Origin: Patescibacteria group bacterium
GTDB lineage: Bacteria > Patescibacteriota > Microgenomatia > Levybacterales > UBA12049
Assembly (NCBI GenBank): GCA_038064195.1
Contig: JBBTTO010000002.1
Span: forward strand, 630,615 to 694,614
Direction: 5' to 3'
Length of the DNA: 64,000 bases
A program made the position numbers and the translations under genes. The notes under the pieces are model-generated. The model made no database searches and had not been told where the DNA came from. It was given only the letters and a program-made list of their open reading frames with translations. This document shows positions 3,702 to 60,279 of the stretch, one piece after another. The stretch's first letter is position 1. Every line of letters starts with the position of its first letter.

Positions 3702-4132
3702 TAGCTCCAGAGTCCCTCAGACAAATGCTTCCTCAGATGCGCGAAGTAGCGAGACTTGTTAATGAAGATTTACCAATTCTTCTAGGAGATCAATTAGGAG
3801 AGGGAATTACTGTTGATGAAATAGATGATATTGCCGGGTTGGAAAGGGCGGTGTTTTGTCTCGAGCAGATGCGATTAGTTGGGACGTATTGTGGGGAGCG
3901 TTTGGGTGTTATGAATGAGAAAGCAAGTCAGAATCTCTTAGGGAAATTCCATCCCGGAGAAGTTATCATCTTTGAAGATCCTGAAAAAGGGAAAACAGTT
4001 GTATATCAGCCGTATCAGCAAGACTATATTAGAGAGCGCCGTTCAGGCTACATATTTTCCTCGATTACAGTCAACGTCGAAGCCGGATTAGTCCGTCCAG
4101 TAGTTATAGAAGCAGTTAGTGAGGCCCGCTGA
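3698..4132 (+). CDS. hypothetical protein
   Basis: 144-aa ORF overlapping the LysM gene stop by 4 nt (ATGA). No recognisable motif. Confidence 0.45.
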   Translation: MIAPESLRQMLPQMREVARLVNEDLPILLGDQLGEGITVDEIDDIAGLERAVFCLEQMRLVGTYCGERLGVMNEKASQNLLGKFHPGEVIIFEDPEKGKTVVYQPYQQDYIRERRSGYIFSSITVNVEAGLVRPVVIEAVSEAR

Positions 4133-28000: not shown

Positions 28001-28096
28001 AGACTCACCTCCTTTCTGTTCTAAGATGTTAGTTTGGTCGTCCAAACAAGATAAATGACTGAAAGGTTAGACTTAGTCTAAAACGCGTAGTCAAGC

Positions 28097-28126
28097 TTGT
28101 CAAGAAGCAGCTTCGCTTGGTATAAT
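28097..28126 (+). promoter_or_regulatory. candidate promoter TTGTCA-18-TGgTATAAT (extended −10) for tRNA-Lys(TTT)
   Basis: Hexamers read directly, about 90 nt upstream of the tRNA. Confidence 0.35.
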
Positions 28127-28213
28127 TCAGATCTAGTGTTTAGGAGGTAGTTAGTAGTGTGTAGCCTAATTTAGGAGTTATTATCTACCTACTAATTTCT
28201 ACTCACTCACTTT

Positions 28214-28286
28214 GGGCCGGTAGCTCAGCGGTAGAGCAGGAGCCTTTTAAGCTCTTGGTCACAGGTTCGAATCCTGTCCGGCTCAC
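28214..28286 (+). tRNA. tRNA-Lys(TTT)
   Basis: GGGCCGGTAGCTCAGCGGTAGAGCAGGAGCCTTTTAAGCTCTTGGTCACAGGTTCGAATCCTGTCCGGCTCA, anticodon loop CTTTTAA. Confidence 0.9.
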
Positions 28287-28440
28287 CTAGTAGGACACCT
28301 GTTTCAGAAAATGAAAGAATTGCTTGATATAATGGGCTAATCGCGTGGTTCGAATAAGCAAAATAGTTCCAAAACAATATAGAGGAGAATATTGACCGGT
28401 TTGACTTTCATTTATACTTTCTGGAATACTTGAGGTAGAT

Positions 28441-56375: not shown

Positions 56376-56672
56376 TTACCTGAGGTTAATTTTACTTTTA
56401 CTTAGAGTTTTAAGTTTTTGTAAGTCGCCATTGATTAGCGCCTCTTTTTTAGCTCTCGACCAGCCTTTAAGCTGAGTTTCTCGATGCATTGCTTCAAGCC
56501 TAGTAGCATATTCCTCACTATAATCAAGCTGGAAACCATGACTATCTTTTGTGAACTTTGCTGCTTTCCAATCTTTTGTTATATGCTGCTTGGTCCGAGC
56601 GTTAATATTATTTGTTTGGCCAACATATAGCTCGTTAGAAGAACTTCGAAGAATGTAGACAAAGTAGGGCAC
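56376..56672 (-). CDS. small standalone GIY-YIG nuclease family protein (GTG start)
   Basis: PYFVYILRSSSNELYVGQTNNINARTKQH…. More divergent than the other two paralogs. AAGGAG lies 14 nt upstream of the GTG. Confidence 0.65.
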   Translation of the reverse strand: MPYFVYILRSSSNELYVGQTNNINARTKQHITKDWKAAKFTKDSHGFQLDYSEEYATRLEAMHRETQLKGWSRAKKEALINGDLQKLKTLSKSKINLR

Positions 56673-56761
56673 AGATAGTTCTTCGACTCCTTTCAGTCGC
56701 TCAGAACATTCGCCTCGCTTTTAAATGGTTGGAAACCATGAGCGAGCAAGGCGAGTCGAAT

Positions 56762-56800
56762 GGGTAGGGTAGCGAATGATGTCCGGACTTATTATAGCAA
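56762..56800. repeat. 39-nt repeat, copy 2 (identical to 55406..55444)
   Basis: Lies about 90–130 nt upstream (minus sense) of the GIY-YIG gene 56376..56672. Confidence 0.7.
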
Positions 56801-57723: not shown

Positions 57724-58551
57724 CTAGACTAATGCTCTTCCCATATGTACACTAGCTACAGTAATAGGAATAGGATGTGCTGACAAAGATGCGCCCACTG
57801 TGGCATAGGCCTCATCGGTAAATGCTAACAACCTGTCACTTGGTACCATATCTGTAACACGAGACACAGACGTGTGAAATATGTCATCCCATCCATATGG
57901 AAAACCAAATCCTCCGGGAAAGTCTATTTGCTCTTCTCGCTCAAACACAGTCGCAGCTCTTCCCAAAACATGCTTAGTCTTGCCTGGGTTGTCTGGATCC
58001 GCGAAGTTAGTACCAACAATTGCCTCAATTGCCTTTCGCGCCTTATAAGGGGCTCCTTGCTCATCATCGAATTCACCGGCACAAATATAACTATTTGGCC
58101 CAACCACCAATGTATCCATATGGAAGGTCAAACCAGTAAGATATTTGGATATCAACCCCAGATGAGACCTATTTGACAGGAGATAAGCATCCATTTGTGC
58201 TTGATCCTCTGGAGAAAGATCTTTATACGGACTATTGAATAGAGTTACGTGAGGCATCAAGTCTCCTGCTCCAGCAAAGACTGCAGGAACTTCATAGGTA
58301 GAAGCAAGCTCTTGTAGAGGACCAACCACTTGTTCAATTACTTGTTGCTGGGATGGCGCTTCAAGCTCAAACCCGCCCGCAAAAAGATTCTTAAATGAAT
58401 CAGGAAACCCAGCAAATGGAGTATATTTGCCACTTTCAAATGCTTCTCGCCCTTGCTGACGTCTGAGGTTGATTTTGGCGGTATAAGCTGCCTGCATTGC
58501 ATCCACCACCGCTTCATCTCTTACCGGATAAACTCTCTGCTCTGCTGACAT
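57724..58551 (-). CDS. hypothetical protein with two H-x-T/S-x motifs (possible 2H phosphoesterase fold)
   Basis: PHVTLFNSP near residue 95 and IFHTSVSRV near residue 225. Otherwise no recognisable domain. Divergent from the third GIY-YIG gene. Confidence 0.4.
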   Translation of the reverse strand: MSAEQRVYPVRDEAVVDAMQAAYTAKINLRRQQGREAFESGKYTPFAGFPDSFKNLFAGGFELEAPSQQQVIEQVVGPLQELASTYEVPAVFAGAGDLMPHVTLFNSPYKDLSPEDQAQMDAYLLSNRSHLGLISKYLTGLTFHMDTLVVGPNSYICAGEFDDEQGAPYKARKAIEAIVGTNFADPDNPGKTKHVLGRAATVFEREEQIDFPGGFGFPYGWDDIFHTSVSRVTDMVPSDRLLAFTDEAYATVGASLSAHPIPITVASVHMGRALV

Positions 58552-58637
58552 ACGAGGGGATTATATGAAAGATTGGGTAGAGAAGCAAATTAACAAGAGT
58601 TTGCGAGGCTAAGGCTAACTTGCTACAATACCTATAC

Positions 58638-58701
58638 GCGCCTGTACCCGCCTGCCATCCGGCTGGAGCCGTCAGGCGACTGGCGGGCAGGGCTCAGCGG
58701 A
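58638..58701 (+). repeat. split duplicate of the tRNA-Arg(TCT) 5' end (GCGCCTGTA … GCTCAGCGGA), interrupted by a 45-nt GC-rich imperfect palindrome
   Basis: Removing 58647..58691 (CCCGCCTGCCATCCGGCTGGAGCCGTCAGGCGACTGGCGGGCAGG) leaves 19 nt identical to positions 1–19 of the tRNA at 58946. It ends 1 nt before the GIY-YIG ATG. Confidence 0.6.
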
Positions 58702-58702
58702 C

Positions 58703-58939
58703 ATGTTTTATACATATGTATTAAAGAGTTTATTCGATAATAAGTTATACGTGGGTTTTACTGATAATATAGAACGAAGGTTAGACGAGCATAATAATGG
58801 TCTAGTAACTGCAACAAAATCGAGGAGACCTTTAAAATTAATCTATTATGAAGCTACTCTTAGTCAAGAAAAAGCCATAATGAGAGAGAAATATTTTAAA
58901 TCTGGTTTCGGGAGAAATTTTTTGAAAACAAGAATATAA
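58703..58939 (+). CDS. small standalone GIY-YIG nuclease family protein
   Basis: MFYTYVLKSLFDNKLYVGFTDNIERRLDEHNNGLV…IYYEA…R. Clear paralog of 43852..44118. Stop 6 nt before tRNA-Arg(TCT). Confidence 0.75.
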   Translation: MFYTYVLKSLFDNKLYVGFTDNIERRLDEHNNGLVTATKSRRPLKLIYYEATLSQEKAIMREKYFKSGFGRNFLKTRI

Positions 58940-58945
58940 TTATTT

Positions 58946-59018
58946 GCGCCTGTAGCTCAGCGGATAGAGCATGTCGGTTCTAACGACGGGGTCGGGGGTT
59001 CGAATCCCTCCAGGCGTA
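58946..59018 (+). tRNA. tRNA-Arg(TCT)
   Basis: GCGCCTGTAGCTCAGCGGATAGAGCATGTCGGTTCTAACGACGGGGTCGGGGGTTCGAATCCCTCCAGGCGTA, anticodon loop GTTCTAA. Same G1·U72 acceptor as tRNA-Arg(TCG). Confidence 0.8.
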
Positions 59019-59021
59019 CTC

Positions 59022-59059
59022 AAAAAATCTCTTGAACTGAAGGTTCAGGAGATTTTTTT
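59022..59059. terminator. bidirectional intrinsic terminator (A6 – TCTCTTGAAC/GTTCAGGAGA stem – T7)
   Basis: Read directly, immediately 3' of tRNA-Arg(TCT). Confidence 0.55.
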
Positions 59060-59060
59060 G

Positions 59061-59220
59061 ACTATAATGGGGATTCGAACGGCCGGACTGAACGAGGAAG
59101 TCTCCTGACTGACGAAGTGAGGGAGGCGGGGTCGCGGGGATCGCGAAGCGATAACCTGTGACTCGAATCCTTGACTGCCTACCAGCCAATTCCCAGACGC
59201 GCTAAGCTTCTCAACATCCT
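59061..59220 (+). other. GC-rich ~150-bp non-coding element of unknown nature, preceded by TGacTATAAT
   Basis: Marked GC enrichment versus flanks. Contains a T-arm-like GGGGATTCGAACGGCC on the opposite strand and several short GC hairpins. No ORF with coding character. Does not fold as a tRNA by hand. Confidence 0.3.
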
Positions 59221-59286
59221 TAATTGACAAAAAAAGGTGTTCGATATACTATTGTAAAGGAATAGTGAACCTAGTGCTTTTAAATT

Positions 59287-60279
59287 GTGATTCATCGTTT
59301 TTATAAATATCTTCTCAGTAACCAAGTAATTTTTGCTTTGTTCTTGGTTATTTTTGGCTGGCTACTCTTCCAAACCCGAGGGATTATTACCTCAATTTTT
59401 ATTGCCTATATTATTAACGCTGCGTTGCTTCCGGTTGTACGATATCTTAGGAAGAAAGGCGTGCCACATTTCTTATCTGTTTTTATCCCATTTATTGCCA
59501 TCATTATTGTTATTTTCATGATTATATTTCCCTTAATTCCTTTTATTGTTGACCAAATTAAAGCACTTTTGGCGGGGCTTCCCGGGTATGTCAAACAGGC
59601 AGCTGATATATCCGGCTTATCAGTTGATGCTAATCAAATTCAATCTTATGTTTCTCGAGAAATAGGATCTATTGGCAGTAATGCTTTTAGCGTTACCAGT
59701 AAAGTCTTCGGAGGCTTGTTCTCAACCTTAACAGTCTTGGTGGTTAGCTTTTATTTGATTTTGTACCATGACCGCTTTAAACAAAATATCGCTCAACTAT
59801 TTCATAAAGATGAACGGGAAAGAGTCGTTAACACCTTAAGTCTAGTTGATGACAAATTAGGAGCATGGTTATCAGGTCAAATTGTACTCTCGCTTTTTAT
59901 CGGTATTATTACCTGGATTGCCTTAAGTGCTATTGGGCTGCCATACGCTGTACCACTGGCTATCTTAGCGGGAATTTTGGAGATTGTCCCAACGATTGGA
60001 CCGATTATTTCAGCTATTCCAGCAATTGTTGTTGCCTTGACGGTTTCACCCCCTTTAGCAATTATCGTCGCTCTCATCTACTTTGGAATTCAAATGATAG
60101 AAAATAATCTACTAGTTCCAAAAATTATGCAGCGAGCAGTCGGCTTAAATCCGGTGATTGTTATCCTCGCTGTTATGATTGGGGCCAACTTAATGGGTGT
60201 TATCGGGGCTTTATTGGCAGTACCATTTGTCTCCTTTATTATGGTGTTATTTAGGAGCCTGGCTGAAGACACAAATTAA
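59287..60279 (+). CDS. AI-2E family transporter (PerM / UPF0118)
   Basis: 330 aa with 7–8 TM helices and the conserved family layout. Confidence 0.75.
   Translation: MIHRFYKYLLSNQVIFALFLVIFGWLLFQTRGIITSIFIAYIINAALLPVVRYLRKKGVPHFLSVFIPFIAIIIVIFMIIFPLIPFIVDQIKALLAGLPGYVKQAADISGLSVDANQIQSYVSREIGSIGSNAFSVTSKVFGGLFSTLTVLVVSFYLILYHDRFKQNIAQLFHKDERERVVNTLSLVDDKLGAWLSGQIVLSLFIGIITWIALSAIGLPYAVPLAILAGILEIVPTIGPIISAIPAIVVALTVSPPLAIIVALIYFGIQMIENNLLVPKIMQRAVGLNPVIVILAVMIGANLMGVIGALLAVPFVSFIMVLFRSLAEDTN

Follow-up and report, generated by a model that had tools for sequence, protein, structure and literature searches.

A GIY-YIG nuclease gene and a GC-rich palindrome at a duplicated tRNA 5' end: a probable homing-type cassette family in Patescibacteria

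Introduction

The closest described systems to the locus reported here are the Seg enzymes of T-even phages, GIY-YIG homing endonucleases of which one, SegB, is encoded in a tRNA gene cluster (PMC2330249; PMC13096335). Double-strand breaks introduced by SegB lead to gene conversion and to a microhomology-mediated tandem amplification of tRNA plus segB in phage T6 (PMC13096335). The present locus was found in a stretch of 64,000 nucleotides (64 kb; hereafter the window) of contig JBBTTO010000002.1 from a Patescibacteria group bacterium. It is made up of a 237-bp gene for a minimal Slx1/UPF0213-like GIY-YIG nuclease and a GC-rich palindrome of about 45 nt, called H in the following, which separate the promoter of a conserved gene from its body. 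This gene is usually a tRNA gene, here tRNA-Arg(TCT). The locus probably represents a family of selfish homing-type cassettes that is widespread in the ultra-small Patescibacteria and apparently undescribed.

Comparison with described systems

The cassette resembles the Seg genes in that a GIY-YIG gene lies beside tRNA genes and in that its presence varies between relatives. Seg proteins, however, comprise about 200 amino acids or more and possess DNA-binding domains, whereas the 78-amino-acid protein of the window consists of a catalytic domain only. Seg genes are located between other genes, have neither a split partial copy of the target nor a palindromic partner, and are phage-borne, whereas the cassette is chromosomal in Patescibacteria. 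In functional terms the cassette works most like such free-standing homing endonuclease genes, while lacking the combination of nuclease and DNA-binding domain that counts among their criteria.

The best sequence and fold matches are provided by the stand-alone UPF0213/YhbQ/COG2827 proteins (PDB 1YWL, 1ZG2) and by the nuclease domain of Slx1, a structure-specific nuclease; like the window protein, these matches comprise nothing but the domain. The window protein differs from UPF0213/COG2827 in its shorter length and in its membership of a separate, highly conserved clade of Patescibacteria. In the literature searched, UPF0213/COG2827 proteins are not described as mobile or tRNA-linked, which agrees with what a preliminary description of this DNA, made from the sequence alone, had said of stand-alone COG2827 proteins.

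Integrase-dependent islands and prophages likewise regenerate the target tRNA, part of which they bring to two copies, and leave a truncated copy at one border. They differ in that they duplicate the 3' end, are kilobases long and rely on a tyrosine or serine recombinase, whereas the cassette duplicates the 5' end (the 3' end in the case of a paralog), contains a single 237-bp open reading frame (ORF) and has no recombinase.

A parallel for the palindrome is found in the GC clusters of yeast mitochondria (e.g. GC42), mobile elements with a conserved hairpin, a variable loop and tandem or merged copies, for which help from a nearby endonuclease has been proposed (PMC4478555). H is, in the same way, a GC-rich hairpin insertion of about 40 nt in AT-rich DNA. 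The yeast clusters are dispersed in intergenic regions and show putative AG target-site duplications, whereas H shows none and resides inside a duplicated gene fragment.

In collaborative homing, a free-standing endonuclease gene is located beside an intron that interrupts the target of the endonuclease. In both cases a non-coding insertion splits a conserved target, and a nuclease gene lies beside it.

Group I introns have been reported in tRNA genes of Patescibacteria, in an account that never mentions GIY-YIG (PMC13011429). Unlike these introns, H is not a ribozyme, as judged by the lack of an Rfam match, and it is unspliceable; function is kept by duplication of the target. Some cassettes are followed by tRNAs that themselves contain group I introns. 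The full-text literature searched yielded neither a description of H nor one of GIY-YIG genes lying within tRNA genes of Patescibacteria.

Anatomy of the locus

The locus comprises the following features, given with their positions in the window and their strand.

58601..58629, plus: promoter-like site of the sigma-70 type, TTGCGA-17-TACAAT with TG extension (putative function)
58638..58646, plus: upstream copy of tRNA-Arg positions 1-9, GCGCCTGTA (read directly)
58647..58691, strand not applicable: H, 45-nt GC-rich imperfect palindrome (78% GC), CCCGCCTGCCATCCGGCTGGAGCCGTCAGGCGACTGGCGGGCAGG
58692..58701, plus: upstream copy of tRNA-Arg positions 10-19, GCTCAGCGGA (read directly)
58703..58939, plus: ORF of the GIY-YIG nuclease, 78 amino acids, catalytic domain only
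58940..58945, plus: spacer TTATTT, 6 nt from the stop codon to tRNA position 1
58946..59019, plus: intact tRNA-Arg(TCT), the regenerated target (ARAGORN; Rfam, 60.9 bits)
59022..59058, plus: terminator-like hairpin and T run, with 16-nt arms that are 94% complementary

The preliminary description had noted that the first 19 nt of the tRNA recur upstream of the ORF, interrupted by an insert between positions 9 and 10 and ending 1 nt before the ATG. All of this proved exact on direct recount. The insert boundary falls exactly at tRNA position 9|10, and since the two blocks represent positions 1-9 and 10-19, the insert is seamless. A single C at 58702 separates GCTCAGCGGA from the ATG at 58703. 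The gapped pattern has a single instance in the window, and 100 shuffles produced none. Each of the two blocks, 9 and 10 nt long, has three occurrences in the 64 kb, all of them at the 5' ends of tRNA-Arg genes or in the fragment itself. The identical 19 nt also begin the tRNA-Arg(tcg) gene (44249-44231, minus strand), so that the window taken alone leaves two candidate sources for the fragment; its relatives point to tRNA-Arg(TCT). Similarity between fragment and tRNA may reach further on both sides. The sequence ATACCTATAC 5' of the fragment resembles ATAATTATTT 5' of the tRNA, and CATGT at 58702-58706 may correspond to tRNA positions 25-29 after a 5-nt deletion of TAGAG, in which case the tRNA would have supplied the start codon of the nuclease.

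The 3' end of the promoter-like site is located 8 nt upstream of the fragment. The fragment therefore occupies the start position of a tRNA, probably the 5' end of the transcript, and very probably forms the 5' untranslated region (UTR). The site is presumed to be the original tRNA promoter, now driving fragment, H, ORF and tRNA; a comparable ..tgcgaggct..ttgctacaat is found upstream of tRNA-Arg(tcg), and in the empty-site relative L083 (L numbers denote related loci) GTTTGCC..TACAAT stands directly 5' of the tRNA. The hairpin at 59022..59058, which was missed by a consensus terminator scan, is the presumed end of the transcription unit. In related loci the spacer between stop codon and tRNA typically measures -1 to 12 nt.

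The promoter-proximal copy of the target is a dead remnant, which is split by H and runs into the start codon of the nuclease. Neither ARAGORN nor Rfam calls the fragment (58638-58702) as a tRNA; it contains positions 1-19 only and has no cloverleaf. As the distal tRNA copy is intact, the host loses nothing. Rfam searches of the whole window and, with permissive settings, of 58400-59400 returned only the tRNA at the locus and no ribozyme, riboswitch or T-box. No match to Intron_gpI was obtained in 58400-59400 even at E<=10, and the downstream tRNA is uninterrupted. Between the repeats the GIY-YIG gene is the sole ORF, and no recombinase is encoded there.

The nuclease gene and its product

Residues 1-70 of the protein match the Pfam GIY-YIG domain PF01541 with E=6.3e-16 and 58.9 bits (cut-off 22.6). 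The AF2 model (pLDDT 96.8) shows the topology EE-H-H-E-H-H, which is the GIY-YIG fold with its three-stranded sheet and flanking helices. The best Foldseek matches in the PDB are UPF0213 and Slx1 (TM 0.70-0.74, root-mean-square deviation 1.8-2.2 A), compared with TM 0.50 for I-TevI. A phmmer search against the PDB gave 1ywl at 5.5e-5, 1zg2 at 2.9e-4, SLX1 at 0.035 and I-TevI at 0.98. By sequence and by the fold of the AF2 model the protein belongs to the GIY-YIG superfamily and, within it, to the UPF0213/Slx1 cluster, nearer to UPF0213/Slx1 than to I-TevI/Seg or UvrC. PADLOC yielded no defence-system match for the 78-amino-acid protein, and the sole NCBIfam match was a sub-threshold one to a group I intron endonuclease.

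Protein searches uncovered 1660 homologs at E<1e-5, which are 62-76% identical and come from Patescibacteria wherever a name is given. They span Roizman-, Magasanik- and Paceibacteria as well as other groups and constitute an unusually uniform family. Residues Y5, Y16, G18, R26, H30 and E62 are invariant in 23 sequences. The invariant Y, Y, R, H and E presumably have the catalytic roles of their counterparts in I-TevI and Slx1, an assignment made by analogy. The composition of the gene sets it apart from its surroundings: its GC content is 28%, compared with 43.6 +/- 4.5% for the window, and is the lowest among all 237-nt windows in the 64 kb.

Recurrence across Patescibacteria

A scan that took one genome per species detected 503 relatives, from which 80 loci were retained for analysis. 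In 66 of them a tRNA gene on the same strand lies -10 to +120 nt from the stop codon of the GIY-YIG ORF, mostly at 0-12 nt. Four further loci have a tRNA that was missed by ARAGORN; three of these tRNAs bear an intron and one is weak. At least 19 different anticodons are represented among the downstream tRNAs. When the downstream tRNA was compared with the 150 nt preceding the ATG, the longest common substring reached at least 13 nt in 21 of 66 loci, which happens in about 1% of non-cognate comparisons, and this substring nearly always begins at tRNA position 1.

The layout of the window locus can be generalized as flank, tRNA[1..x], H, tRNA[x+1..y], 0-36 nt, ATG..stop, about 0-20 nt and the complete tRNA. 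A strict parser recognized tRNA[1..x]-H-tRNA[x+1..y]-ATG in 36 of 68 testable loci and in only 1 of 395 non-cognate controls; L025 (positions 1-20, H, positions 21-37), L075, L064 and L080 are examples of such split duplications. Insertion points (x) are concentrated at 9, 13 and 19-21, a few falling at 5-7 and 11, and the typical contexts in the D-arm are TA^G, GG^TAG and CTC^A. The end point y lies at 15-38 and y minus x amounts to 8-22. H always ends 10-42 nt before the ATG or else is found shortly after the stop codon. Three cassettes are known at tRNA-Arg(tct), namely those of the window, L080 and L087. All three have x=9 and the same H subfamily, and their proteins are 63-71% identical.

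The same logic is not restricted to tRNA genes. In L060 and L081 (both 1900-2300) the target is a gene for an NAD-dependent epimerase (Pfam E=9e-41 and 3e-64), with a cassette, H included, in its 5' end; the coding segment for ..TGGAGFIGS.. is duplicated and its upstream copy is split by H. The nuclease stop codon overlaps the epimerase start in L060 (ATGA), and the right arm of H is deleted in L081. A mirror arrangement is formed by GIY-YIG paralogs of about 90 amino acids, which are located just after tRNA genes and precede a duplicate of the tRNA 3' part. This duplicate measures 33 nt in L033 and 18 nt in L007; in L012 it comprises 12 nt together with 3' flank of at least 45 nt. No H was seen in these mirror loci.

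Three loci hold a group I intron (RF00028, 70-79 bits) in the tRNA downstream of the cassette (L014, 2268-2480; L023, 2265-2499; L056, 2264-2504), so that two types of invader share one tRNA gene. Eleven of the 80 loci lie no more than 300 nt from a contig end, as would result if short-read assemblies break at the cassette or at H. Many of the metagenome-assembled genomes that contain the loci are labelled 'uncultured Gammaproteobacteria' and yet look patescibacterial; L051 is labelled Methanosarcinaceae.

The palindrome H

The preliminary description had credited the insert with an imperfect terminal stem of 10 bp. The arms CCCGCCTGCC/GGCGGGCAGG do pair at 9 of 10 positions, with one C.A mismatch and one U.G wobble, and a folding check predicts a hairpin of -37.5 kcal/mol. 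These irregularities arise because the window H is a member of an asymmetric subfamily, CCCGCCTGC..GCGGGCAGG, the reverse complement of which is the CCTGCCCGC..GCAGGCGGG form of other loci. Across loci the consensus of H reads CC(C/T)GCC(C/T)GC ... GC(A/G)GGC(A/G)GG, with a frequent inner part ..CGCAAGC-loop-GCTTGCG..GGCGTTGC; the arms are CCCGCC(C/T)GC / GC(G/A)GGCGGG and the length ranges from 36 to 62 nt. Relative to the ORF, H is present in orientation A in 24 cases and in orientation B in 13, the remainder being ambiguous. Copies of H nested within another H occur in L035, L045, L049, L064 and L082, and tandem copies in L021.

H is a conserved element that is tightly linked to the ORF. 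Of the 53 copies in the 80 loci, 50 are at most 150 nt away from a GIY-YIG ORF, and the DNA within this distance makes up 16% of the total. The comparison with a miniature inverted-repeat transposable element (MITE), which the preliminary description had drawn, has held up in that H is short and non-coding, has terminal inverted repeats and forms a family of many related, conserved copies that are found in either orientation and are sometimes nested. The dispersal of such an element was not seen: the 64-kb window contains a single copy and the others scanned cluster near the ORF, the scan having covered loci rather than whole genomes. As H is nearly exclusive to the vicinity of the ORF, a component acting in cis is a better fit than a MITE that disperses.

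At tRNA-Lys genes beginning with GGGCC, H follows the ORF and abuts or overlaps tRNA positions 1-4, its GGG replacing the first bases of the tRNA. In L066 (2240-2435) H interrupts a tRNA-Val copy at 21/22 and holds a complete second tRNA-Val(cac) in its loop, and the ORF upstream of it has a further Val-like fragment, which is split by a 62-nt H. A test for covariation was uninformative about an RNA fold, since the outer stem of H is invariant and the inner part unalignable. The motif 'CAGGCG' within the insert was considered as a copy of the 3' strand of the tRNA acceptor stem. This idea was dropped because the motif is part of conserved H (..TCAGGCGTTGC..) and recurs in H at unrelated tRNAs.

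Other small palindromes were observed near these genes. L018 (1003-1180) presents, in this order, a GIY-YIG ORF, H, a tRNA-Lys fragment that another small palindrome (ccccgattaaatcgggg) interrupts, and a second ORF from another GIY-YIG subfamily. In L024 and L063, motifs of the type ccccga(a)ttaatcgagg, akin to the L018 palindrome, precede the ORFs.

Empty and filled sites

A scan of metagenomes with the tRNA-Arg(tct) sequence retrieved seven loci. In L087 the site is filled: the flank is followed by positions 1-9, H and positions 10-29, which join the ATG directly, and after the ORF come TAA, tgc and the tRNA. In L083 it is empty: the 44-nt flank of L087, with one mismatch, directly precedes the tRNA, and the downstream sequences are about 88% identical. 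The presence of the cassette is therefore polymorphic at an orthologous site. L084, L085, L088 and L089 are cassette-free as well, and the tRNAs of L084 and L089 are identical to that of the window. The preliminary description had proposed to look for such empty sites in relatives and would have been contradicted by an ancient, fixed locus without polymorphism; the five cassette-free metagenome loci speak against the latter. Its proposal of a GIY-YIG cassette inserted at a tRNA gene with duplication and regeneration of the target gains support from this orthologous pair and from the recurrence at many tRNAs.

A further such site lies in the window itself. Its tRNA-Lys(ttt) gene (28090-28287; tRNA at 28214) has a cttgtcaag..tataat promoter and an 85-nt leader with no ORF, and the same type of promoter drives a GIY-YIG ORF in front of tRNA-Lys(ttt) in L005, L013, L022, L047 and L063. 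The tRNA-Lys(ttt) of the window is an empty or emptied site. Signs of turnover are also given by arrays and decayed, ORF-less units (L016, L019, L031, L032, L050) and by duplications that take in 7-29 nt of the 5' flank (L033, L045, L059).

The window locus has the identical sequence in independent assemblies and runs of Hainich groundwater, which include contigs of 0.7-1.08 Mb. No polymorphism within the population was found; contigs retrieved via the AI-2E transporter and via the GIY-YIG protein represent the same strain, with one long-read homopolymer indel. A synteny search of metagenomes with the neighbouring 275-amino-acid protein detected no relatives, and the exact protein is not on record.

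Proposed mechanism

Confidence in the anatomy is high, and confidence in the mechanism is moderate. From the anatomy we infer the specificity of the nuclease and the chemistry of insertion as follows. The whole unit would be transcribed from the promoter of the target. RNase P releases tRNAs from longer transcripts as a matter of established biology, and would likewise free the tRNA from this co-transcript. The nuclease would break cassette-free copies of the same target, and repair from a cassette-bearing copy would amount to homing. In such a repair event the left end may invade the upstream fragment, synthesis would proceed through H and the ORF into the full gene, and annealing with the right end would reproduce the architecture.

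H would serve two purposes in this scheme. It may disable the nuclease site in the remnant, and it would cut the direct repeat into short pieces, here of 9 and 10 nt. Recombination via the segment downstream of H would generate an H-split, lethal tRNA, which would stabilize the cassette. Since that route yields a dead tRNA, viable loss would be possible only through the short [1..x] repeat. New targets would be acquired rarely. As is the case for SegB, the nuclease may induce a microhomology-mediated tandem duplication, and homing from the resulting array may follow. The Slx1-like fold keeps open a different mechanism, in which the modelled enzyme would act on the extruded palindrome.

A more far-reaching proposal is put forward tentatively, as possible rather than probable. 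The cassettes may represent a new class of minimal mobile element, in which a 237-bp Slx1-like gene plus a palindrome of about 45 nt colonizes the 5' ends (in paralogs the 3' ends) of the most highly conserved Patescibacteria genes and preserves their function by bringing or making a duplicate of the interrupted segment instead of by splicing. H would then be both the structured DNA partner of the nuclease and a 'poison pill' that renders most losses of the cassette lethal, and homing would be driven by a nuclease that is specific for structure instead of sequence.

Weighing the alternatives

A number of findings count against a selfish, mobile cassette. The protein is a catalytic domain throughout, with no DNA-binding domain, and the regenerated tRNA, which still holds the presumed target of the nuclease, is itself a potential substrate for self-cleavage. 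No target-site duplication is present at H, the tRNA running from x to x+1 seamlessly across it in 36 loci. Every contig of the source population carries the cassette with identical sequence. Among 2.9 million viral contigs in IMG/VR only one has a cassette, so that no vector is evident. The proteins diverge in a star-like manner, with identities of 63-78%, and different targets were not seen to have nearly identical copies. Clustering by tRNA type is only partial, 27 of 70 proteins having a nearest neighbour with the same type, where chance would give 10%. Recent jumps are therefore undocumented, and a large part of the pattern may be old. Finally, the empty state of L083 may just as well stem from a precise deletion as from a site that was never filled.

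Several of these points would be expected of a domesticated operon, in which an old, vertically inherited host gene, for example one for repair or recombination, is co-transcribed with tRNAs and immobile today, and in which the tRNA pieces and H are debris of local tandem duplications and of unrelated MITE insertions. The star-like divergence without near-identical copies at different sites, the fixation in the source population and the virtual absence from viral contigs (1 locus) are all in its favour, as are the high conservation, with catalytic residues intact across phyla, and the kinship to the non-mobile UPF0213/Slx1 proteins. We nevertheless regard this explanation as unlikely. It does not account for at least 19 tRNA targets plus a protein-coding target with the same junction logic, for orthologous sites that are empty in one genome and filled in another, or for tandem arrays, ORF-less units and several cassettes per genome. 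The extreme composition of the ORF and the location of 11 of 80 loci within 300 nt of contig ends, as is seen for repeats, are likewise foreign to an operon, and debris would not yield seamless split copies in 36 of 68 loci.

Somewhat less likely still is that H is the primary mobile element, a non-autonomous palindrome homing into D-arm-like DNA with the Slx1-like GIY-YIG protein as its structure-specific nuclease on the hairpin or cruciform. The tRNA fragment would then be a tolerated landing pad, and intact tRNAs hit by H would be lethal and hence unseen. Such a role would suit the seamless insertion of H in either orientation and also into other copies of H, the clustering of insertion points at TA^G, GG^TAG and CTC^A in the D-arm, the preservation of the tRNA by the GGG end of H at GGGCC tRNA-Lys genes, and the L066 case, where H interrupts tRNA-Val and a replacement tRNA-Val is located in the loop. 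The fold, too, is closest to that of Slx1, which cuts branched and stem-loop DNA. H is, however, hardly ever found away from a GIY-YIG ORF (50 of 53 copies within 150 nt, one copy in 64 kb). The paralogs of about 90 amino acids duplicate the target without H, and duplication is therefore independent of H; the lack of a target-site duplication is a further point against this explanation.

The preliminary description had also considered a role of the tRNA fragment as an RNA-level leader. A regulatory or processing device of this kind, with the tRNA 5' fragment plus hairpin acting as tRNA mimic, attenuator or RNase substrate and selected because it controls the nuclease mRNA or the maturation of the tRNA, is very improbable as the cause of the arrangement. 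The position of the promoter does place fragment and H in the 5' UTR, the hairpin is predicted to be stable, and H always has its end 10-42 nt upstream of the ATG unless it closely follows the stop codon. The same layout is built, however, with the 5' end of an epimerase gene instead of a tRNA and is mirrored at tRNA 3' ends, H occurs in both orientations and has no Rfam match, and the fragment has no 3' partner with which to adopt a tRNA-like fold. Support from covariation is lacking as well, the test being uninformative for the reasons given above. The hairpin may, secondarily, contribute to the stability of the mRNA.

Chance resemblance or an assembly artefact, which only the shortness of the two blocks (9 and 10 nt) could suggest, is practically refuted by 0 of 100 shuffles, by identical sequences in independent assemblies and runs and by the dozens of genomes that share the architecture.

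Implications

Stand-alone UPF0213/COG2827 proteins are widespread and have no assigned role, and one clade of them shows the hallmarks of a selfish element. The strategy of preserving the target by duplicating the interrupted gene end and placing a palindrome in the dead copy was not found described in the literature searched. If the proposed reading is correct, it would constitute a third way, beside introns and inteins, for a nuclease gene to reside inside an essential gene. It would also explain part of the odd tRNA-gene neighbourhoods and assembly breaks in Patescibacteria, and would offer a marker for gene flow among uncultured bacteria as well as a very small nuclease with a defined DNA hairpin partner.

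Other features of the window and of related loci

The window contains a second cassette of the paralog type.

44249-43692, minus: tRNA-Arg(tcg), 56 nt, 87-amino-acid paralog (44118-43855; phmmer 1.8e-21), 90 nt, tRNA-Lys(ctt)

No H is present in this cassette, and no copy of the tRNA 3' part was seen after the paralog. In L057 and L010 the counterparts of tRNA-Arg(tcg) and tRNA-Lys(ctt) are only 4-7 nt apart. A small palindrome, GGAACGTAGAACGTTCC, precedes tRNA-Lys(ctt) in the window.

A third, distant GIY-YIG ORF of 98 amino acids is located at 56379-56800 on the minus strand and has its own TTGCTATAAT promoter. Its leader (about 56770-56700) contains a different GC-rich hairpin. No tRNA follows this ORF, and a degenerate T-arm-like stretch is found after its stop codon.

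About 1.7 kb from the cassette of L056, a LOOT RNA (RF03000, 69.7 bits) was identified at 3991-4119 on the minus strand; it is probably unrelated.

Behind the terminator of tRNA-Arg, a GC-rich stretch of 130 nt (59060-59190) without Rfam match closes with a degenerate copy of the tRNA 3' end and has T-arm-like pieces within it (ggggattcgaac; gactcgaatcc). It looks like an older, separate insertion on the 3' side, and a clean 15-nt copy, ATCCCTCCAGGCGTA, is present 31-65 nt after the same tRNA in L083 and L087.

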